A DNA stretch of 64,000 nucleotides. Origin: an uncultured Candidatus Binatia bacterium (GTDB taxonomy: Bacteria; Desulfobacterota; Binatia; UBA9968; JAJDTQ01). Under the pieces are notes generated by a model. It was given only the letters and a program-made list of their open reading frames with translations. It was not told where the DNA came from and ran no database searches. This document shows, piece after piece, positions 735-49,770 of the stretch. The translations under genes and the position numbers were made by a program. Each line of letters opens with the position of its first letter. The stretch's first letter is position 1. The stretch covers positions 896,001 through 960,000 of the forward strand of contig OZ219754.1 of NCBI GenBank assembly GCA_964291295.2, given 5' to 3'.

Positions 735-3700
735 ATGGCCGTAACTGCGACAAATACGCGACAAATACAAGCGCGAAGACGACGGGCGATCTTGCCGCGG
801 CTGTTCTGGCGGGGCGCGAGCGCCTCGCGCGCGAACCCCGTACCCCCCCCCCCCCCCCCGAAAACCGGCTGCGGGGCTGAGCCGGTGAACGCCCTCCGGA
901 GAGCCGGACATGGGCTGAAGGCCGCGTTCACCGCCGGCCTGCTGTTGGCGTTGGCCGCTGTCCTCGCGCCCCAGGACGCAGGGGCGCAAGACTTCACGAT
1001 CACCGTGGGACCGGGCTCCAAACAGGTCACCCTGAACTACCGAACAAGCCGGCCTCCAAGCTCGATCCGGGAATGGGGCTACCAAGTGGGAACCTCCTCG
1101 AGAAATTACCAAAGCAACGTAGCCATTCCCGACTCCGGAGGAAAAAGCTCGGGGTCGCATGTCGTGTCCGGCCTGACCTCGGGGGAAACCTACTACTTCC
1201 GCATACGGACGACCTCTACGGACGGCGCCAACACCTTTGGCAACGAGGTCTCCGTGACGCTGCCGACTGTCACCCTCACGGTGAACGGAAACGATGGATG
1301 GTTCGGTTTCGAGTGGGTGTACGACGGCCCGACTGACGGCGCGGTGAGCTGGCAGCTCGAGTGGATCCGGCTCTCGGACCGAAACGGAGAGGGCCGGTGG
1401 CTTGATTTACCCGGCGGCGTCGCCCTCAGAGCATACAGCTACAGCGCAACCAACGGCGAGACTGGCATCTTCCGGGTTCGGCTGGTGGGTCCGGGCGGGC
1501 GGACCACGATCGCGTCGAGCACCGTCAACAACCAGGGCTGGGTCGAGGCCACGCCGCGGGCGGCGACCCCGACGCTGGTCTCCACTGCGAGCCGGACCTT
1601 GGCAGTGACTCCGGGCGGGACGGTGAATGCGTGCTTCAACCTGCTTTCGGTCACGGCGGGCGACACGACGTATCTGGAGGCGCGCCCCGGCCAGACGGCT
1701 GTCGCCCAGCATGCGGCGCTGTCGCACGGCACCCACGGTGTCCGGATCTCGAGCAATGTCGACGGCGTGCGGACGGAAGTCGGCCAGAACCTGTATCCCT
1801 GCGCCGCGCTGGGCGTCGGCGTCCATACGGTCCGCTGGCACTGGAAGGGCCATGACGGCACGGCGGCGACGGAGGCGTCTACATCCACCACGTTCACCGT
1901 CGTGCAGGTTCCCGACCGGACGAAGGACCTGAGCGCCAACCCGGTTTCCGGCAAACCGGGTGAGATCTTTCTGAGGTGGCGCGATCCGATCGAATCCGGG
2001 ATCACCTGGGAATATCAGTACAAGGAGGGCGCCGGGAGTTACGGTGCGTGGACGGCGGCTTCGCTTCAGTCTACGGGTATCCCGGATACCCTCGGAACCA
2101 CCGTGACGGGCCTGAAGCCCGGCACGACATACACGTTCCAGGTCCGGGCGCGGAATGACGGCGGCGCCGGCGCGGCCTCCGCGGAGGAGAGCGCGACCAC
2201 TGTCGCGCCTTTGGTGCCGGCTGCGCCGACGGGGTTTGCGGCATCTCCGGGGAGCACGAAGGTGTGGCTGACCTGGACCGACCCGGAGGACGCCAGCATC
2301 ACCGGCTGGGAGTATCAGCAGAAGGCGGGGGGCGGGAGTTACGGTTCGTGGACAGCGGTTACGGGTTCGACGGCGACGACGACACACGTCGAAGTGACGG
2401 GTCTGACCAACGACACGGCCTATGCGTTCAAGCTTCGGGCGGTGAGCGATGCCGGCAACGGTACGGCGTCGGCTGAACAGACGGCCACGCCGGGGGCTCA
2501 GGTTGCGGCGGTGCTGACGGGCACGGCGGGCGCCGACGGCGCGCATGATCTCACTTGGACGACGACCTCCGGCGGCCCGCACAGGATCGTCAACAACGCC
2601 AATCACATCGGCCTCTGGTACGCGTATTACCGGGCCAGGGGTAGAACAACATGGGGCGGGCCGAGCTACACGGGCGGCGCCGGCACCCGGAAATGGTCAA
2701 CTTCGGGGTCGCCGCACGGCGCGGTTTTTGAGTATCTCGTCCAGCCGGCCGGGTCTCGCATCATCGCCGGCCTCGGCTCCTTCAACTGGAAAGGCCCGGA
2801 GTCCAATGTGATCGAGCTGACGGTCAACAAGCCGGATTCGCCGGCGCTGACGTTCGCGGATGCGCCGGTGACGGTTTCGCCGGGACAGACGGCGACCTAC
2901 ACGGTGAAGCTGAACCAGGCGTTTGCGGGGACGCTTGCGCTGTCGAGTTCGGCGGCGGGCAAGGCGAGGGTGAGTCCGTCGAGCCTGACGTTCACGACGA
3001 GCAACTACAACGTGGCGCGGGCGGTGACGGTGACCGGGGTGGCGGCGGGGACGGCGACGCTCAACCATGCGTTCACGCTGACGGGGGCCTCGAAGACGTT
3101 CATCCCGGATGCGGGGACGGTGTCGGTAACGGTGGGCTCGGGCGGGGGCCAGGTTCCGGCGAAGCCGACGGTGTTTGCAGCGGCGGCGGGCAACGGGCAG
3201 GCGGTGCTGACGTGGGCCAACCCGAACAACGCGAGCATCACGGGCTACAAGCTGCGCTACGCCAAGACGGGCGACAGGAGCAGCGCGACGTGGACCGCCA
3301 TCCCGGGTTCGGGCGCGACCACCGCGACCCACACGGTGATGGGGCTGGACAACGATGCCGAATACAGCTTCCGGCTGCGCGCGGTGAACGGCGCGGGCGA
3401 CGGTGCCGCCACCGACTGGGTGACGGCGACACCCTCGTCGGCGCCGGCGGCGCTGGCGAAGCCGGTGAAGCCGGTTCTGACGGCGGCGGCGGGCGACGGC
3501 TCGGTCACCCTGAGCTGGAGCGCCCAGACGGATATCGCGAGTTGGGTCTACCAGTACAAGAGCGGGGCCGGCAGCTGGAGCGCGACCCGGACGGTTTCGG
3601 ACGGGAGTGCCACGAGTACGGAGGTGACGGGGCTGACGAACGGGACGGCCTACACGTTCCGGCTGTTCGCCCGGCGCGGCAGCGGCGCCTCGGCCGTTCA

Positions 3701-13963: not shown

Positions 13964-14875
13964 GTGCTGCAGGCGTTCGCGGAGATACTGGCCCCTTCCT
14001 TCCTGCTCTTCCCGGCGGTGCTGGGAAGCGTGGTCCTCGGACTGGTGTGCCCCGCGGTGGGAGGCTTCCTGGTGCTCCGGCGCAGCGTTCTGCTGGGCTT
14101 GGTGCTGCCTCAGTTGGCGGCTGCGGGCGCGGCGTTCGCCCTGTTTGCGCACGCAGTCGGCCTTGTGCCGCATCCGGGCCACTCCACGGGCCACGCCGGC
14201 CACGCGGGCCAGATGGAGGGCATTCTGGCCTACGGCGGTTCGTTGCTGTTCACCTTCGCGGGCATGGCGCTCCTGGGCCTGACGCACCGGGGCGGCGCCG
14301 GGCGCTCGGAGACGCGGCTGGCCGTGGTCTATGCCTTGGCGGGGTCGCTCACGGTTCTCTTCGTGGCGTTCCACCCCTTTGGCGACGCGGCGATCCTGGG
14401 TCTCGTCAAGGGCGAGGCCGTGGTGCTGTCTTGGGCCGAACTCGCCGGCTTGAGCGCGGTCCATGTGGCGGCGGCGGCGTGCCTTGTACTGTTTCGACGT
14501 GAATTGCTGATGGTGTCGTTCGACCGCGACCTCGCCTTCCTCCTCCGGGGAGGCGTCTCCAGGTGGGACCTGCTCTTCCATCTGACCGCCGGGGTCACCA
14601 TTGCACTGGGCGTCATGATGGCCGGTCCTCTGCTCACCTTCGGCCTGCTGATGCTCCCGCCCATCGCCGCGCGGCCCCTGGTGTCGCGGATGGCGCCGTG
14701 GTTCATCGCATCGTCGCTCGCGGGTGCCGGCATCGGTGTCACCGGCTTCGCTGTCGCCTACCGGTTCGACGTGCCGCTGGGTCCTGCGGTGCTGACCCTG
14801 GGCTGTGGGCTGGTGCTGGCGGTTCACGCCCTGGCGCGGCTGTTGGTACGTCTCATGAAGGGCCTAGCATTTTGA
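13964..14875 (+). CDS. znuB: Metal ABC transporter permease; last ~11 codons supplied by the inserted cassette
   Basis: ABC-3 pattern GGFLVLRR...LPQLAAAG, LLMVSFDRDLA, AGPLLTFGLLMLP. Confidence 0.85.
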   Translation: MLQAFAEILAPSFLLFPAVLGSVVLGLVCPAVGGFLVLRRSVLLGLVLPQLAAAGAAFALFAHAVGLVPHPGHSTGHAGHAGQMEGILAYGGSLLFTFAGMALLGLTHRGGAGRSETRLAVVYALAGSLTVLFVAFHPFGDAAILGLVKGEAVVLSWAELAGLSAVHVAAAACLVLFRRELLMVSFDRDLAFLLRGGVSRWDLLFHLTAGVTIALGVMMAGPLLTFGLLMLPPIAARPLVSRMAPWFIASSLAGAGIGVTGFAVAYRFDVPLGPAVLTLGCGLVLAVHALARLLVRLMKGLAF

Positions 14876-15240
14876 GATTTTGAGGAAGATGGATTGACGG
14901 ATGTGGTCCGGACGAAAGGCCTGGGATTGGCATTGTGGCCAGCCAAGGAGTGCTTGATGGCCACAATCCGTTCCGGGACGCTGCGAAAGACACCGCGGCG
15001 CAGACGTTGGGGAGTCAGCTTTGCGAACCCACTTTCGACGAGATTGAGCCAGGAGGTGCGGGTGGGCGTGAAATGGAGTCGGAATCGCGGGTGAGCAGCC
15101 AGCCACCGGCGCAGCGCTTCATGCCGGTGAGTTCCATGATTGTCCAGGATGATGTGCCGGGTCGGGTCGCGCGGGAAGGCACGGTGGAGGCGCCGCAGGA
15201 ACTTCAGGAACTCCTGATGCCGATACGGACCGATGAAGGC
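14840..15240 (-). pseudogene. IS630-family transposase C-terminal fragment (left arm, copy 1)
   Basis: RHQEFLKFLRRL..HIILDNHGTH..HPRFRLHFTPTRTSWLNLVE..LRRGVFRSV; no N-terminus; frameshift near end. Confidence 0.9.
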
Positions 15241-15301
15241 GCTTCGTCCAGGTACGACCGCCCCCGACCGTGCCGCGGCCGGCCCGCTGGCGGCCACGGT
15301 C

Positions 15302-15589
15302 TCAGCGCCCGGGCGTGGCGGCCAGCACCTCGTCGAGGCTCGCCGCCACCAGCACGGCCTCCGCCCAGGCCTCCAGTTCGGAGGCCGACGCACGGCGAAC
15401 CCGCTCGCCCACCGCGTCCGGCACATCACCGAAGCGCAACGCCAGTTGACGAAGAAGAAGTTCCGCCAAGGCCTGTATCCGGCCTCGTTCGATTCCCTTC
15501 TCCATTCCCTCGGCCCTTCCTTCAGCTCTTCCCCGTTCGATTCCCTGTTCGATTCCCTGTTCGATCCAGGCTTGCGCGACTGTGCCCAT
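15302..15589 (-). CDS. Putative intragenic small protein RpnS (antitoxin), copy 1, 95 aa
   Basis: In-frame ATG (MGTVAQAWIEQG) preceded by GGGAGG at 5-nt spacing. Confidence 0.6.
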   Translation of the reverse strand: MGTVAQAWIEQGIEQGIERGRAEGRAEGMEKGIERGRIQALAELLLRQLALRFGDVPDAVGERVRRASASELEAWAEAVLVAASLDEVLAATPGR

Positions 15590-16315
15590 CAGTGCCTCCC
15601 AACGGTCCGGCTTTGTCCGGCGCAGCGACGCCTCCAGCAAGGGCGGCGTCAGGTTCATGCACTCGGCCATGTAACGCACAATATGACGCTCGAACGCGCT
15701 CCCCGCAACCGGCCCGCCCGTCATCTGGTCCAGAAGATCCGTCGGTATGTCCTCGGCATATACCACCTTGAGTGCCAGAAGCCCGGCCCGCACTTCGGGC
15801 GAGACCGACAACCGCCTTGGCGCAATCTCGCCAAGGTCATGCAGCACATAGGCGAACTCCCTGACGAAAGGCTCCAACTCCCCGGGCGCGTCGATCATCC
15901 CCGGCACCGAGGGCGCCGCGGTCCAGCGGCCCCGACCGTGGTAGAAAACCAGCGGAATGATCGCCGGCAGCCGGTCCCCGGCGGCGCCATTCTCGACCTC
16001 GCGGCGCCAGATGTTGACCATGTATTTCAGGAGTTGGAGCGGCGTGTCCGCGTCGACGCGGCTCTTGTGTTCGAGCAGCACATAGAGCCGCGCATCGTGG
16101 CCGCTCCTCAGTCTCACCCGGAACAGCGCATCGCACTGGGTCCGCGCGGCGTCCTCGTCCACGAAGTGGCCCTCCACCGCCTCGGGCGGGGCCTCGGGGT
16201 CGAGAAGAGCGGCGACTTCTTGCGGCAGGTATTGCGCCAGCAGCGCGGCGGCGCGGGCCGGCTCGGAGACCAGTGCCCGGAACAGCGCATCGTGCGGCGT
16301 CGTCGGAAGGCTCAC
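15302..16315 (-). CDS. Rpn-family (YhgA-like) PD-(D/E)XK nuclease with DUF4351-like tail, copy 1
   Basis: TPHDALF, HFVDE..QCDALF, YVLLEHKS, LLKYMVNIW, IIPLVFYHG, (I/R/M)xE(Q/K/R/G)G repeats, LLLRQLALRFG..LEAWAEAVL. Confidence 0.9.
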   Translation of the reverse strand: MSLPTTPHDALFRALVSEPARAAALLAQYLPQEVAALLDPEAPPEAVEGHFVDEDAARTQCDALFRVRLRSGHDARLYVLLEHKSRVDADTPLQLLKYMVNIWRREVENGAAGDRLPAIIPLVFYHGRGRWTAAPSVPGMIDAPGELEPFVREFAYVLHDLGEIAPRRLSVSPEVRAGLLALKVVYAEDIPTDLLDQMTGGPVAGSAFERHIVRYMAECMNLTPPLLEASLRRTKPDRWEALMGTVAQAWIEQGIEQGIERGRAEGRAEGMEKGIERGRIQALAELLLRQLALRFGDVPDAVGERVRRASASELEAWAEAVLVAASLDEVLAATPGR

Positions 16316-16324
16316 CGGGCGGGT

Positions 16325-16485
16325 TCCCCGGCGTCTTTCGCAGCGTCCCGGAACGGATTGCCGCCATCAAGCACTACCTGGCTTGCCACAATGCCAATCC
16401 CAAGCCTTTCGTCCGGAATACATCCGTCCACTCCATCCTGCGCAAGATCGCAGATTGTAAGGCCATTCATGAGACACACCACTAG
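16325..16485 (+). pseudogene. IS630 3' end fragment (right arm, copy 1)
   Basis: GVFRSVPERIAAIKHYLACHNANPKPFVRNTSVHSILRKIADCKAIHETHH*, inverted relative to the left arm. Confidence 0.85.
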
Positions 16486-17891
16486 GGACATGGCTCCGGC
16501 GCTGACGGGCCGCGTCGCCCGGCGTCGCGGAACGCCTCCTCGGTGCAGGCTGTCAGCAGCCGGTCATGGGCGTGGTCCGGGGCGAAGACGCGGAACTTGA
16601 CGATCTTGGAGGGGATGTAGGCGAACAGCTCGGCCATGGACTCCTTGGTGATGACGCCGGTGGCCGGATCGTAGGTGTGAATCTGCTTCTTTCCCATGGC
16701 CATGGGGTTTTCCGGACGGGAATCCTGGCTCGCGATGTCCACGTGGTACACCAGGCTCCGTTGCGCCTCGGGCAGGGCCGCGCGGATCAGGCTCTCCCAC
16801 CGGGGAACCTCGATGGCGTCGAGCCCGCTCTCCAATTCCGCCGCCGAGAGGGTTCGCTCGCAAGCCAGCCGCCACTTGAGGTCGCGGTCGAGGATGCGGC
16901 CCCATTCGCGTCCCAGGGAGATGCCGAGACGGCGCCAGCGGGACACCTCCTGCAGCAGCGACCCGTCGGTCAGATTCAGGTACGACTCCATGTTGTCCAA
17001 GGGGTTGCCCGGTGCGATGCGGGCCATGGTTTCCGGGAACAACTCCTGGAGGTGCACGTCGATGGCTCGGGTGGTGCGGTGGAAGTAGACGTTCTCATAG
17101 AGGTATTTGCGCGCGTTCAGGAACATGGTGAGGGCGCCCTCGCCGGAACGGTGCAGGGTCAGCCCCTTGGGCGAGATGAAGGTGTAGTGGATGAGCCTTT
17201 CGCGGTCGATGGGGCCCACCGAGACCCCGCACATGTAGGAGTCGCGCGACACGTAGTCGAGGTTGTCGAAGGTGAAGATGCCGTTGGTGAGGGGCTGAAG
17301 GAAGCGCAGCCACAGGGGCCTGGCGGGGTCGTCCGCGGAGTCCTTCTTGATGGGAAAGGCGATGTCGTCGGGGTCGAGCGCTTCTCCGTCGGCAAAGCGC
17401 CCCGACGGGCTGCGGCGGATGCGGCGGATGATGTCGCCGAGATGCTCGCGGATGATGACCTGGGAGATGTCTTCGTGGATCAGGCCGTACTGGCTCAGGA
17501 AGTGGTTGTCGAAAAAATGACAGAAGGGGCCGTGGCCGACATCGTGCAGCAGTCCGGTGACCCGCATGTACTCTTCCACGCAGGCGGCGGAAGGGCACGC
17601 GTCGCCCAGTACCCGGCGCAGCGACGGGTAGAGGCTGCGGGCAAAGGCGCCGGCGAGGTGCATGGCCCCCAGACAGTGCTGGAAACGGCTGTGCTCCGCC
17701 GAGGGATAGACCCAGCGGGCGCTCTGAAGCTGGAATATGTAGCGAAGGCGCTGGAACCAGGGGGAATCGATCAGGTTCTTTTCCGTGACCTCGTCCGGAT
17801 CCTCGGGGACGGTGAAAGGGATGTAACGGTGGATCGGGTCGGCGATGAGGGAGCACCCCGAGTACGCCTCACGCGCCCCGTCGGCGGTCAC
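16482..17891 (-). CDS. HD-domain phosphohydrolase (dNTP triphosphohydrolase-like)
   Basis: IADPIHRYI, FQRLRYIFQL, AEHSRFQH, LLHDVGHGPF, DNLDYVSRD, VYFHRTTR; GTGA overlap with archease. Confidence 0.85.
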   Translation of the reverse strand: MTADGAREAYSGCSLIADPIHRYIPFTVPEDPDEVTEKNLIDSPWFQRLRYIFQLQSARWVYPSAEHSRFQHCLGAMHLAGAFARSLYPSLRRVLGDACPSAACVEEYMRVTGLLHDVGHGPFCHFFDNHFLSQYGLIHEDISQVIIREHLGDIIRRIRRSPSGRFADGEALDPDDIAFPIKKDSADDPARPLWLRFLQPLTNGIFTFDNLDYVSRDSYMCGVSVGPIDRERLIHYTFISPKGLTLHRSGEGALTMFLNARKYLYENVYFHRTTRAIDVHLQELFPETMARIAPGNPLDNMESYLNLTDGSLLQEVSRWRRLGISLGREWGRILDRDLKWRLACERTLSAAELESGLDAIEVPRWESLIRAALPEAQRSLVYHVDIASQDSRPENPMAMGKKQIHTYDPATGVITKESMAELFAYIPSKIVKFRVFAPDHAHDRLLTACTEEAFRDAGRRGPSAPEPCP

Positions 17892-18316
17892 AGCTCGAAA
17901 CCCACCTGCGCGGTCCACTGGGCGCCCATCTTGCCCAAGTGGCTCACGCGCTCGGCCACAGCGCCGATGGCCTCGCGCTCCTCGTGACGGTCGGGATCGA
18001 ACTTCTCGCCCCGCGCCTCGGCATGCACGAAGAATTCGCCGGCCTTGCGCACGTCGAATTCCTTCAACACGTACCCGCTGGCCTGGTACTCGTAGAGCAG
18101 TTCGCGTATCCAGTTGACCATCAGGTCGTCGTTGTCGAGCCCTTCCACCTCAAGGATGACGCTCTCGCGCACCTCCACGGTGTCCGGGTCCACCAACAGG
18201 TCGAACAGCGCAGTTCCGGCGTCCGCGAGAATCTGCGGCAGCGAATCGCCGGAGAGCCGGATGCTCAGCTCCGACGACTTCCGAATCACTCTGTATTTCT
18301 TGTTCCCGTCCGCCAT
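17888..18316 (-). CDS. Archease (SHS2 domain protein)
   Basis: LMVNWIRELLY, AEARGEKFDPDRH, C-terminal WTAQVGFEL. Confidence 0.75.
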   Translation of the reverse strand: MADGNKKYRVIRKSSELSIRLSGDSLPQILADAGTALFDLLVDPDTVEVRESVILEVEGLDNDDLMVNWIRELLYEYQASGYVLKEFDVRKAGEFFVHAEARGEKFDPDRHEEREAIGAVAERVSHLGKMGAQWTAQVGFEL

Positions 18317-46495: not shown

Positions 46496-47776
46496 TCAAC
46501 CTCGATCCAGCGCGCGCCGGGCAATGTCCCGGCGGCAGTGCATGCCGTCCCAGTTGACCCTGTCCACCCCGCCGTAGGCCTCGCGGGCGGCCGCAGCCAA
46601 GGTGTCGCCAAGTGCGGTCACGCCCAGAACCCGCCCGCCGTTCGTGAGCCAGCGCTCTCCGTCGCGTTTTGTCCCGGCATGGAACGCGTGTCCTTTGTGC
46701 CACGACGCCAGCCCGCCGGACCCGTCGAGCCCGTCTATTTCCATACCGGTTCCGTACTCGCCGGGGTAGCCCCCGGCGGCCAGCACCACGCACACCGCCG
46801 CCTGGTCCGACCACCGGGCGGTCACCTCCCGGAGCCTGCCCTCGGCGGTGGCCAGGAGAAGCGACGGGAGGTCGCTCTGGAGCCGCATCATGATGGGCTG
46901 GCATTCGGGGTCGCCGAAGCGGGCGTTGAACTCCAGTACTTGGGGGCCGTCGCCGGTGATCATGAGCCCGGCGTAGAGCACGCCGCGGTACACCAGGCCG
47001 CGGCGCTCGAGCCCCGCCGCCAGCGGTTTCAGCACCCGCTCCACCACCGCCTCGTGCACGGCCGCGTCCACCACCGGCGCCGGTGAGCAGGCGCCCATGC
47101 CGCCGGTGTTGGGCCCCTCGTCGTTGTCGAAGACGCGCTTGTGGTCCTGGGCCGACGCCAGCGGAAGAAAGTCGCGGCCGTCCATCAGGGCCATGAACGA
47201 GGCTTCCTCACCCACCATCTGTTCCTCGATGACCACCCGGTCGCCGGCTGCGCCGAAGACCTTGCGGCCCATGATGCCGTCGAGGGCGGCTTCGGCTTCC
47301 GCGCGGCCGGAGCACAGGATGACGCCCTTGCCGGCCGCCAGCCCGTCCGCCTTCACCACGCACGGCCGGTCCCGCGCCACGTAACGGCGCGCCTCGCCCA
47401 GGTCCGAGAAGACCTCGCAGGCCGCGGTGGGGATGCCGTTCTCCAGCATCAACTCCTTGGCAAAGGCCTTGCTGCCCTCCAGCCGCGCCGCGTCCCGGCC
47501 AGGCCCGAACACCCTGAGGCCCCTGGCCGCGAACATGTCGCCGATGCCCAGCACCAGCGGCTGCTCCGGTCCCACGACGGTGAGGTCGATGGCTTCGCGG
47601 GCGGCGAACTCCGCCAGCTTGTGGATCTCGCCGGCGCCGATGTCCACCCGTTCGGCCAGCCGGCCCATGCCGTCGTTGCCGGGCGCACAGTAGAGCCGGT
47701 CCACGTGCGGGCTTTGACGCAGCTTCCAGACCAGGGCGTGTTCCCGCCCGCCGCTGCCGACCACCAGAATCTTCAT
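46496..47776 (-). CDS. purD: Phosphoribosylamine-glycine ligase
   Basis: GSGGREHAL, KADGLAAGKGV, GPNTGGMG, EFNARFGDPE. Confidence 0.97.
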   Translation of the reverse strand: MKILVVGSGGREHALVWKLRQSPHVDRLYCAPGNDGMGRLAERVDIGAGEIHKLAEFAAREAIDLTVVGPEQPLVLGIGDMFAARGLRVFGPGRDAARLEGSKAFAKELMLENGIPTAACEVFSDLGEARRYVARDRPCVVKADGLAAGKGVILCSGRAEAEAALDGIMGRKVFGAAGDRVVIEEQMVGEEASFMALMDGRDFLPLASAQDHKRVFDNDEGPNTGGMGACSPAPVVDAAVHEAVVERVLKPLAAGLERRGLVYRGVLYAGLMITGDGPQVLEFNARFGDPECQPIMMRLQSDLPSLLLATAEGRLREVTARWSDQAAVCVVLAAGGYPGEYGTGMEIDGLDGSGGLASWHKGHAFHAGTKRDGERWLTNGGRVLGVTALGDTLAAAAREAYGGVDRVNWDGMHCRRDIARRALDRG

Positions 47777-47802
47777 GGTCCGGGCGGGCTGCATGCCGCA
47801 CT

Positions 47803-47827
47803 GTCATTCCCGCGCGAGCGGGAAACC
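47803..47827. repeat. REP-like palindrome
   Basis: gtcattcccgcgcgagcgggaaacc. Confidence 0.6.
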
Positions 47828-48064
47828 GGGGGAGGCGGTGCCGGGGAAGTGGTTGCCGCCGCCGTCGGTCCGGTGCCTGCGGCGCAGGACGTTTCGGCGG
47901 CTGACAGGCGGGAGAGCATGTCCGGATTTTCGTCCATTGCGTCCAAAATGCCGGAAACGTGCAGCCTGGTCCCGTTATCGGACACGAAAAGGGCACCCGG
48001 TGGAACTCTGGTGGATCTCTGTCCCACGAAACTGTCCCACGAAAACTCTCTGCGGCGCAGGCTC

Positions 48065-48465
48065 CTGGTGGTACGTCTCATGAATGGCCTTGCATTTCGA
48101 GATTTTGAGGAAGATGGATTGACGGAAGTGGTCCGGACGAAAGGCTTGGGATTGGCATTGTGGCAAGCCAAGTAGTGCTTGATGGCCACAATCAGTTCCG
48201 GGACGCTGCGAAAGACACTGCGGCGCAGACGTTGGTGAGTCAGCTTTGCGAACCCACTTTCGACGAGATTGAGCCAGGAGGTACGGGTGGGCGTGAAATG
48301 GAGTCGGAATCGCGGGTGAGCAGCCAGCCAAAGGCGCAGCGCTTCATGCTTGTGAGTTCCATGGTTGTCCAGGATGATGTGCAGGGTCCGGTCGCGCGGG
48401 AAGGCACGGTGGAGGCGCCGCAGGAACTTCAGGAACTCCGGATGCCGATACGGACCGATGAAGGC
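48065..48465 (-). pseudogene. IS630 transposase C-terminal fragment (left arm, copy 2)
   Basis: LHIILDNHGTHKH, HFTPTRTSWLNLVE, AIKHYLACHNANPKPFV; same frameshift as copy 1. Confidence 0.9.
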
Positions 48466-48526
48466 GCTGCGTCCAGGTACGACCGACCCCGACCGTGCCG
48501 GGGCCTGCCCGCTGGCGGCTACGGTC

Positions 48527-48874
48527 TCAGCGCCCGGGCGTGGCGGCCAGCACCTCGTCGAGGCTCGTTGCCACCAGCACGGCCTCCGCCCAAGCCTCCA
48601 GTTCGGAGGCCGACGCACGGCGAACCCGCTCGCCGACCGCATCCGGCACATCACCGAAGCGCAACGCCAGTTGACGAAGAAGAAGTTCCGCCAAGGCCTG
48701 TATCCGGCCTCGTTCGATTCCCTTCTCCATTCCCTCGGCCCTTCCTTCAGCCCTTCCCTCGGCTCTTCCCTCAGCTCTTCCCTCAGCTCTTCCCTTTTCG
48801 ATTCCCTTTTCGATTCCCTTTTCGATTCCCTGTTCGATTCCCTGTTCGATCCAGGCTTGCGCGACTGTGCCCAT
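48527..48874 (-). CDS. Putative intragenic RpnS, copy 2, 115 aa
   Basis: GGGAGG-5 nt-ATG conserved in frame. Confidence 0.6.
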   Translation of the reverse strand: MGTVAQAWIEQGIEQGIEKGIEKGIEKGRAEGRAEGRAEGRAEGRAEGMEKGIERGRIQALAELLLRQLALRFGDVPDAVGERVRRASASELEAWAEAVLVATSLDEVLAATPGR

Positions 48875-49600
48875 CAGCGCCTCCCAACGGTCCGGCTTTG
48901 TCCGGCGCAGCGACGCCTCCAGCAAGGGCGGCGTCAGGTTCATGCACTCGGCCATGTAACGCACAATATGACGCTCGAACGCGCTCCCTGCAACCGGCCC
49001 GCCCGTCATCTGGTCCAGAAGATCCGTCGGTATGTCCTCGGCATATACCACCTTGAGTGCCAGAAGCCCGGCCCGCACTTCGGGCGAGACCGACAACCGC
49101 CTTGGCGCAATCTCGCCAAGGTCATGCAGCACATAGGCGAACTCCCTGACGAAAGGCTCCAACTCCCCGGGCGCGTCGATCATCCCCGGCACCGAGGGCG
49201 CCGCGGTCCAGCGGCCCCGACCGTGGTAGAAAACCAGCGGAATGATCGCTGGCAGCCGGTCCCCCGCGGCGCCATTCTCGACCTCGCGGCGCCAGATGTT
49301 GACCATGTATTTCAGGAGTTGGAGCGGCGTGTCCGCGTCGACGCGGCTCTTGTGTTCGAGCAGTACATAGAGCCGCGCATCGTGGCCGCTCCTCAGTCTC
49401 ACCCGGAACAGCGCATCGCATTGGGTCCGCGCGGCGTCCTCGTCGACGAAGTGGCCCTCCACCGCCTCGGGCGGAGCCTCGGGGTCGAGGAGAGCGGCGA
49501 CTTCTTGCGGCAGGTATTGCGCCAGCAGCGCGGCGGCGCGGGCCGGCTCGGAGACCAGTGCCCGGAACAGCGCATCGTGGGGCGTCGTCGGAAGGCTCAC
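48527..49600 (-). CDS. Rpn-family nuclease, copy 2
   Basis: Same protein as copy 1 apart from the repeat tract (five more 4-aa units) and one A/T change. Confidence 0.9.
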   Translation of the reverse strand: MSLPTTPHDALFRALVSEPARAAALLAQYLPQEVAALLDPEAPPEAVEGHFVDEDAARTQCDALFRVRLRSGHDARLYVLLEHKSRVDADTPLQLLKYMVNIWRREVENGAAGDRLPAIIPLVFYHGRGRWTAAPSVPGMIDAPGELEPFVREFAYVLHDLGEIAPRRLSVSPEVRAGLLALKVVYAEDIPTDLLDQMTGGPVAGSAFERHIVRYMAECMNLTPPLLEASLRRTKPDRWEALMGTVAQAWIEQGIEQGIEKGIEKGIEKGRAEGRAEGRAEGRAEGRAEGMEKGIERGRIQALAELLLRQLALRFGDVPDAVGERVRRASASELEAWAEAVLVATSLDEVLAATPGR

Positions 49601-49609
49601 CGGGCAGGT

Positions 49610-49770
49610 TCCCCGGCGTCTTTCGCAGCGTCCCGGAACGGATTGCCGCCATCAAGCACTACTTGGCTTGCCACAATGCCAACCCCAGACCTTTCGTCCG
49701 GAACACCCCCGTCAATGCCATCCTCCTCAAAATCTCAAAATGCAACGCCATTCATGAGACGTACCACTAG
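49610..49770 (+). pseudogene. IS630 3' end fragment (right arm, copy 2)
   Basis: [51 protein letters not shown]. Confidence 0.85.

Follow-up and report, generated by a model that had tools for sequence, protein, structure and literature searches.

An rpn cassette bounded by two outward-facing IS630 right ends and present in nine full copies in a Candidatus Binatia genome

MIC231 of Bacillus cereus is the type example of the mobile insertion cassettes. In the accounts given by PMC3129680 and PMC4133298, this established class combines the inverted repeats of an insertion sequence (IS) with a passenger gene and no transposase, the cognate transposase acting in trans. A related arrangement is that of Tn630-NC1 from Nitrosomonas communis, an inverted pair of IS630 elements that are transcribed outward, flanked by TA and associated with a toxin-antitoxin pair in the cargo, which is described in PMC11544213 as the first IS630 composite found in nature. 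As for the rpn genes, they are said in sections 5 and 13 of PMC10400941, the most detailed account of them, to lack inverted repeats and target duplications, and probably to 'hitchhike' by unknown means. The present analysis concerns a stretch of 64,000 nucleotides (the window; G000:C1:896001-960000) from the genome of an uncultured Candidatus Binatia bacterium (G000; 3.70 Mb in 3 contigs, 99% complete, 66% G+C), which holds two copies of a unit made of one rpn gene between two inverted IS630 3' fragments. We consider it highly probable that this unit is a non-autonomous mobile insertion cassette derived from IS630, which once moved in trans and is now orphaned. The first-pass annotation of the window knew of no description of such an architecture; this was too strong, since mobile insertion cassettes are established (PMC3129680, PMC4133298) and Tn630-NC1 has been described (PMC11544213). 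We regard as new the IS630-ended, nine-fold amplified rpn cassette and as known both the class of mobile insertion cassettes and the two-right-end IS630 layout; no description of an IS630-ended rpn cassette was found in a literature coverage that left subscription journals largely aside.

The unit is composed, in this order, of a left arm of ~400 bp, a spacer of ~50 bp, the rpn gene on the minus strand and a right arm of 150 bp. The features of the two copies are the following, in window coordinates.

Cassette copy 1: 14843-16482 (C1 910843-912482), 1640 bp, from TTGGTACGTCTCATG to CATGAGACACACCAC, delimited by alignments.
Left arm of copy 1: 14843-15252, minus strand, inverted IS630 3' fragment of ~400 bp holding a decayed C-terminal part of DDE_3 and a 1-bp deletion (PF13358, tblastn match at 14893-15249, arm alignment).
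rpn of copy 1: 15302-16315, minus strand, 337 residues, GTG start (PF04754 E 5e-43, DUF4351 E 6e-8), laid out as a PD-(D/E)XK nuclease domain, a repeat tract and a DUF4351 tail.
Candidate nested RpnS frame of copy 1: 15302-15589, minus strand, 95 residues, ATG at 15587-15589 with GGGAGG upstream and a 5-nt spacer.
Repeat tract of copy 1: 15485-15568, minus strand, seven 12-bp (four-residue) units.
Right arm of copy 1: 16333-16482, plus strand, forward-oriented, formed by the terminal 150 bp of the IS630 3' end, inner break at GTCTTTCGC.
Cassette copy 2: 48068-49767 (C1 944068-945767), 1700 bp, between purH and purD and co-oriented with both.
Left arm of copy 2: 48068-48477, minus strand, inverted IS630 3' fragment.
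rpn of copy 2: 48527-49600, minus strand, 357 residues, with 12 repeat units at 48710-48853.
Right arm of copy 2: 49618-49767, plus strand, 150 bp, its terminal ~45 bp being of type X (see below), as in left arms.

The two copies can be aligned from GGTACGTCTCATGAA to CCACTAG, and pairwise alignment finds no similarity beyond either end; the alignment stops exactly at the termini on both sides, in agreement with the earlier claim that the unit lies in unrelated contexts. Their difference in size corresponds to a 60-bp change in the 12-bp tandem repeat inside rpn. On its minus strand, the left arm codes for a C-terminal portion of a transposase of the DDE_3 (IS630) type (PF13358, E 1e-13, profile positions 57-140 of 146), and the arm alignment identifies the right arm as the final stretch of this transposase gene, oppositely oriented. 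The reading direction is outward in the two arms, each of which terminates in ...CATGAGAC(A/G)(C/T)ACCAC, the transposase frame running on to a TAG stop codon that is completed by the flanking TA. The first-pass annotation had proposed that the arms represent one IS630 3' end in opposite orientations, both being right ends, and this is what was found; its structural predictions were all borne out, the left arm measuring ~400 bp and the right arm 150 bp. Open reading frame and Pfam scans agree with its claim of one rpn gene between the arms and no intact transposase, the transposase content of the unit consisting only of truncated 3' remnants and its sole gene being one rpn open reading frame.

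A blastn search of the unit against the whole genome gave 51 matches. They include nine full copies, located on C1 at ~885.9, 910.8, 944.1, 1535.2, 1829.1, 2340.2, 2800.1, 3211.6 and 3439.6 kb (hereafter 885k, 910k and so on, 910k and 944k being copies 1 and 2), together with a variant copy at C1 740890-742716 (740k) and a solo end (C1 2796862-2797045); a further three rpn pieces are decayed and lack arms (C1 135.5-136.7, 448.8-449.0 and 3468.0-3468.5 kb). A unit 'present twice' is thus an accurate account of the window, where both copies are real, but not of the genome. The full copies range from 1607 to 1722 bp and their genes from 321 to 357 codons, a variation that comes mainly from the 12-bp repeat in rpn, and they are 91.5-97% identical to the window copy over long aligned segments; chance resemblance is excluded for these 1.6-kb repeats. 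All nine full copies share the same outer ends and the same two inner junctions, while the flanks are unrelated, and the boundaries coincide with the IS630 termini in each of the nine. Because the inner junctions are the same in all nine copies, the unit arose once and was then copied whole, as had been suggested from the two window copies. The 1-bp deletion (GTCAA-TCC) that these two share in their left arms is real; it occurs in four of the nine left arms (885k, 910k, 944k and 3211k), is absent from the other five and marks a subfamily. Matches to PF04754 number 12 genome-wide, all of them of this rpn family. As an observation on genome arrangement, cassettes 885k (C1:885860-887466) and 910k (window 14843-16482) lie ~23 kb apart in inverted orientation with nearly identical left arms, and the flanks of the 885k copy are ~14 kb apart in genome G006; recombination between 885k and 910k could have inverted the intervening segment.

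The cargo of the cassette is a PD-(D/E)XK nuclease gene whose product reaches 147 bits against PF04754, for a gathering cut-off of 21. Residues D9, D62, E82 and K84 are kept in all eight intact cassette copies and in the 740k variant, the ninth cassette gene (3439k) being frameshifted; judged from position and not from alignment, they are equivalent to D11, D63, E82 and Q84 of RpnA, mutants of which are listed in PMC5350276. The eight intact copies carry 3, 7, 12, 12, 9, 10, 8 and 5 repeat units (GIEQ, GIEK, GRAE, GMEK and others), and all arrays differ in order or number. The motif TGGGAGGCxCTGATG, which provides an internal ATG preceded by GGGAGG-N5, is present in 10/10 copies, and the repeats begin ~8 residues downstream of it. 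In the description given by PMC10400941, the internal start of RpnS lies 8-20 residues ahead of the repeats, and the number of repeats sets which RpnS blocks which RpnL. The combination of four-residue repeats with an internal ATG and its GGGAGG therefore suggests, at the level of sequence, a match to the published RpnL/RpnS description. The structure predicted for the candidate RpnS part comprises three helices (residues 4-53, 58-66 and 69-91; mean predicted local distance difference test, pLDDT, of 89), and the RpnS fold is a three-helix bundle with a long first helix. Searches of the PDB by sequence, with Foldseek (best E 1.7) and with VIA-align (generic helical matches, best Z 7.1) gave no relative of the candidate part, and a PADLOC scan for defence systems gave no match.

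The divergence among the copies differs between cargo and vehicle. Over the 36 copy pairs, left arms are 90.5% identical, right arms 91.2% and rpn genes 97.4%, and the 246-codon nuclease part of the eight intact copies (28 pairs) has a non-synonymous divergence (dN) of 0.0048 and a synonymous divergence (dS) of 0.0497, that is a dN/dS of 0.097. The rpn gene has been retained by purifying selection while the arms decayed. At the right junction of five of the nine copies lies the 3' end of a gene that is directed towards rpn, and the rpn gene of copy 2 is in sense orientation between purH and purD; both observations make read-through transcription of rpn copies plausible.

The initial proposal of a non-autonomous unit moved in trans is consistent, for its first half, with the lack of a transposase in the unit; for the second half, a helper was sought and only 3' relics were found in the genome. 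Outside the cassettes, DDE_3 has few matches genome-wide and none is an intact IS630 with a cassette-type end. The terminal motif, searched in the genome with up to two mismatches, occurs only at the cassette ends, in the 740k variant, at the solo end and in one diverged relic. In a tblastn search with the arm protein, the best genome relative, once the cassettes and relics are set aside, has 42% identity and is a fragment as well. The full transposase of the intact element listed below has genome matches that start only at residue 173, the N-terminal 172 residues being without a match, which means that no 5' half survives in the genome. The relics at C1 742276-742713 and 2796862-2797045 indicate that the IS was once resident. 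Since the helper was searched for and not found, movement in trans can be proposed for the past only. The intact element used in this comparison is the following.

Intact IS630 relative: L037 (OY762226.1), locus 2254-3390, TA-flanked, with ends GTGGTATGTCCCT... and GTGGTGTGTCCCT..., its left and right inverted repeats (IRL and IRR) being related to the cassette ends.

This element from a member of the Vicinamibacterales is the nearest intact relative among the matches listed from 185,579 species genomes, with 72% amino acid identity over the C-terminal 113 residues. Its transposase stop codon also falls in the flanking TA, and 22 of the 27 terminal bases of the cassette match its IRR (counted by eye). 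The L037 element is itself bracketed by two inverted 142-bp units (2110-2251 and 3393-3534) with the same GTGGTGTGTC ending, and its appearance is that of an IS which entered MITE-like derivatives (MITE, miniature inverted-repeat transposable element) from its own family, or landed next to them.

The same evidence bears on the proposal that the cassette is still mobile, served either by the resident divergent IS630-family transposase (C1 2583297-2584423) or by a helper that some plasmid or phage outside the sampling would carry, which we regard as improbable. This resident element, the sole intact one of the IS630 family in the genome, has intact inverted repeats and a 334-codon open frame, and the words of the cassette are, when summed, far deeper than the flanks in one sequencing run (X3), a sum that is not a copy number. 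However, the resident element has ends (TACACAGCGACTTAAG...) that show no relationship with those of the cassette, its transposase has no detectable similarity to the arm protein at E 1e-3, and the assembly, 99% complete in 3 contigs, has no other DDE_3 match; moreover, the arms are ~9-10% diverged between copies, which points to old insertions. The resident element has perfect ends of ~20 bp (TACACAGCGACTTAAGTAAT), is TA-flanked and has a decayed relative at ~555.3-556.4 kb.

The first base of the cassette is G and the last is C, the terminal inverted repeats of ~27 bp are near-identical (GTGGTGTGTCTCATGAATGGCCTTGCA), and in 9/9 copies one end has the same terminal ~27 bp as the other. A TA abuts 14 of the 18 junctions (8/9 right and 6/9 left), on both sides in five of the nine copies. 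In the window, these positions and the gene that overlaps one of them are as follows.

Left-hand TA position of copy 1: 14841-14842, reads TG today.
Right-hand TA of the target duplication of copy 1: 16483-16484.
HD-domain gene: 16482-17918, minus strand, its stop codon (CTA, 16482-16484) overlapping the right-hand TA of copy 1 (Pfam).
Left-hand TA position of copy 2: 48066-48067, reads TG today.
Right-hand TA of the target duplication of copy 2: 49768-49769, within the CTAG that contains the purH stop codon.

The earlier claim that TA within CTAG is the target is supported by empty sites in relatives, the nearest genomes having about 87-89% identity to G000 in genes. At the 3439k site, 4/5 same-genus genomes have an uninterrupted single TA (gcgcTAgcc), as opposed to gcgcTA[element]TAgcc in G000; at the 3211k site, a single ctccTAgaag is present in 2/5 of them, the other three having unrelated insertions. 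These empty sites show that TA was duplicated at both sites. At the purH site, CTAG stands exactly at the right junction in 9/11 relatives. A 2-bp duplication in CTAG is the pattern attributed to IS630 in Table 1 of PMC2577343 and its reference 60. TA is 2.3-fold under-represented in the genome and CTAG is 27-fold depleted (424 observed vs 11611 expected); despite this depletion, 11 cassette junctions lie inside CTAG. The element, beginning with G and ending with C, rebuilds CTAG on both sides, so that the stop codons of flanking genes survive: at 8/18 junctions, in 6/9 copies, a long flanking frame has a stop codon that includes the junction TA, and the purH, purD and HD-domain genes next to cassettes were identified by Pfam.

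The same CTAG sites have been occupied by other elements, as IS630-derived MITEs stand at the very same CTAG sites as cassettes in related genomes. In G014 (L189), a MITE-like element of ~250 bp, whose inverted ends are CTAG|TGTCCTGTCCGGTTAATTC, occupies the stop codon of a gene at the site matching the 1829k cassette, and in G006 (L014) a sequence related to it lies just before the purH stop, at the purH CTAG. CTAG stop codons thus seem to be recurrent landing sites of IS630-type elements in this genus. In G012 (L095, G012:C1:4640118-4644588, locus ~953-1514), the fifth of the same-genus genomes compared at 3439k, another insertion of ~560 bp, beginning GTGTACTGTCTCAAATAAAACG, is found at the TA of the 3439k cassette, and this CTAG would then have received IS630/Tc1-like insertions twice, independently.

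Exchange between the copies has also left traces. The terminal ~45 bp of the arms exist as two sequence types, X and Y; five copies are X on the left and Y on the right, 944k is X/X, 885k and 3439k are Y/Y and 2800k is mixed, and this mosaic of types among copies indicates that arms exchanged sequence. It could therefore be argued that segmental duplication, or homologous or illegitimate recombination possibly promoted by Rpn itself, spread the copies and that the IS630 pieces are passive debris. We hold this to be very unlikely. The mosaic arms do show that recombination or gene conversion has acted, overproduced Rpn proteins are reported in PMC5350276 to promote RecA-independent recombination, rpn units whose ends vary and which show no target duplications are presented by Zhong et al. 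in section 5 of PMC10400941, and the distant rpn units of ~1.1 kb in G005 and G012 have sharp ends and no inverted repeats. However, all nine copies end at the same bases, which are the IS630 termini; TA is duplicated where relatives have one TA (3439k and 3211k); the sites are CTAG in a genome where this word is 27-fold depleted; and the insertion sites share no flanking homology.

The sequence is present in three sequencing runs of one study (X1-X3), including a diverged strain, no RNA run being listed among those with the sequence. At the purH-site copy, contigs from these runs extend 25-38 nt across the left junction and 27 nt across the right one. An assembly artefact, that is a collapsed or mis-joined repeat, has a negligible probability: although repeats of 1.6 kb are well known for being misassembled, every one of the nine copies is set apart by substitutions and a repeat array that it alone has, the X1-X3 contigs cross the purH-site junctions and the flanks are syntenic with relatives.

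The preferred explanation, an orphaned cassette that was once moved in trans, can be extended to the origin of the unit. In the 740k variant (740.9-742.7 kb), the innermost 120 bp of the left arm are followed by rpn, then by ~130 bp of upstream DNA and lastly by a 440-bp IS630 3' fragment; the latter exceeds either cassette arm in length, and the ~130 bp are homologous to the upstream region of the arm-less paralogs 136k and 448k. In the nine cassettes, native upstream DNA gives way to IS630 precisely at GGCGTCTT, the corresponding point of the IS630 fragment reading GGTGTCTT. We rather favour the view that the right junction is a deletion across this 8-bp microhomology in a 740k-like ancestor, our confidence being restrained by the star-like rpn tree. 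It can be hypothesised that a resident rpn gene was trapped between two truncated IS630 copies, and that the 8-bp microhomology deletion then produced the short right arm. Both ends of the resulting unit are the right (3') end of the IS, facing outward, with a single rpn of the RpnL/RpnS type as cargo. We infer that an IS630 transposase acting in trans would have recognised both ends and inserted the cassette at TA, preferably in CTAG, duplicating the TA, and that the cassette would have spread in this manner to at least nine sites. The helper transposase would later have been lost, leaving the family orphaned and probably immobile. After this loss, the arms would have decayed, while rpn has been kept by purifying selection and the number and order of its repeats have diverged in each copy.

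Several observations weigh against this explanation. The present genome has no cognate transposase. Four junctions have no TA, namely the left ones of 910k, 944k and 3211k, where TG is found instead, and the right one of 1829k. The left junctions of 944k and 3211k and the solo end read CCTGG/CCAGG, which would be the product expected from a very-short-patch-type conversion of CTAGG, and a Vsr-family endonuclease gene is present in the genome (C1:2462480-2462692, 97 bits); the left junction of 910k needs two changes, and such a conversion does not explain it. Exact empty sites were reconstructed for two of the nine sites and for one side of a third. With the five nearest genomes, reconstruction did not succeed for 885k, 910k, 1535k, 1829k (right side), 2340k and 2800k, where intergenic DNA is too diverged and one of the flanks lacks conservation or does not lie next to the other. 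The rpn tree, with the 136k paralog as outgroup, is star-like, has supports of 11-83, gives no order of the copies and does not place the 740k variant as basal. A promoter scan of the cassette found 0 promoter-like sites, and all nine copies have lost the native upstream region of rpn. Finally, the cassette is found in one genome lineage only.

A DNA search for the cassette in 60 relatives, 27 of them of the same genus, gave no match. Among the matches listed, rpn was beside IS630 at 0/44 IS630 loci on genome contigs, arms or terminal motif were seen at 0/38 metagenome rpn loci, and the closest metagenome rpn genes are 66-69% identical. Genes of the rpn family occur in 17/27 same-genus genomes at no more than 38% identity, and the 28 same-genus rpn loci examined have no IS630 arms. 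A distant rpn family of ~30% identity forms repeated units of ~1.1 kb with sharp boundaries and no inverted repeats in G005 (L104/L122) and G012 (L105/L123), and it has 10 matches in G005 and 8 in G020. In run X3, which comes from a diverged strain, the summed contig word depth over window 48107-49722 is 20-100x that of the flanks; this sum is not a copy number, and the strain may hold many more cassette copies. In run X1, one contig (side 38) joins 47589 to 49769, which might be a cassette-free allele of a co-occurring relative and is too weak to use. At the left end of copy 1, an ABC-3 permease gene (window 13964-14875, plus strand) terminates inside the left arm, its final 11 codons (LVRLMKGLAF and the stop) being derived from the cassette and replacing the C-terminal residues of relatives.

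The rpn genes are widespread, often multi-copy and have long been mis-annotated as transposases. The genome studied here offers a dissectable case of rpn hitchhiking, with defined ends, TA duplications and an origin traceable to a resident gene, and its nine copies record the aftermath, in which the cargo was kept and diversified and the vehicle decayed. It is, in addition, an instance from nature of an IS630 element with two right ends. In this GC-rich and CTAG-poor genome, CTAG stop codons act as recurrent and harmless landing sites; several copies stand directly behind host genes at such stops and could be transcribed by read-through. We tentatively suggest, as a possibility that we do not hold to be the likelier one, that the IS630-derived shell multiplied a self-contained RpnL/RpnS nuclease-antitoxin gene within one genome and that the nine copies, which differ in their repeat arrays and are all under purifying selection, became mutually non-interchangeable variants, forming a paralogous defence repertoire. 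Hitchhiking on IS ends would then be one real route to the transposon-like, multi-copy distribution of rpn. The nine repeat variants represent a ready panel on whether repeat number sets RpnL-RpnS specificity.

The comparison with known systems places the unit between several of them. Like the mobile insertion cassettes, it has IS-type inverted ends, a passenger gene and no transposase. Unlike these cassettes, which belong to IS231/IS4, it is derived from IS630, its passenger is rpn and no cognate IS is left in the genome; furthermore, it has two right ends and remnants of the transposase gene of 400 and 150 bp. With respect to IS630 proper, the cassette has the same target, a TA within 5'-CTAG-3' with a 2-bp duplication, but its arms are only distantly related. 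A laboratory composite transposon of IS630 was reportedly described by Tenzen and Ohtsubo in 1991. As in Tn630-NC1, the components are inverted and read outward, the outer ends are 3' ends and the flanks are TA. Tn630-NC1 has, according to PMC11544213, two full-length degenerate IS of 888 bp and four cargo genes within 6.5 kb, and occurs in one copy, whereas the IS components of the present cassette are 3' stubs, its cargo is one gene, its length is 1.6-1.7 kb and it is amplified nine-fold. A Tn630-type composite with two complete IS630s is not what was found, the components being 3' fragments of ~400 and 150 bp with no 5' half in the genome. The cassette resembles IS630-derived MITEs in being non-autonomous and in having the same family of ends and a TA target. 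MITEs are characterised in PMC4133298 as non-coding and under ~300 bp, and the identity of the cassette as a MITE was rejected on account of its 1607-1722 bp and its selected gene of 321-357 codons. Its gene shares with the rpn/RpnS genes, as these are presented in PMC10400941 and PMC5350276, the PF04754 domain, the D/E-x-K motif, variable four-residue repeats in the C-terminal tail, an internal Met with a candidate Shine-Dalgarno sequence ~8 residues ahead of the repeats and the multi-copy state; the protein is remote from RpnA of E. coli, and an RpnA orthologue (NCBIfam NF007361) was rejected, with 51.5 bits for a cut-off of 583. Unlike the published rpn genes, the nine copies described here have defined inverted ends and TA duplications.

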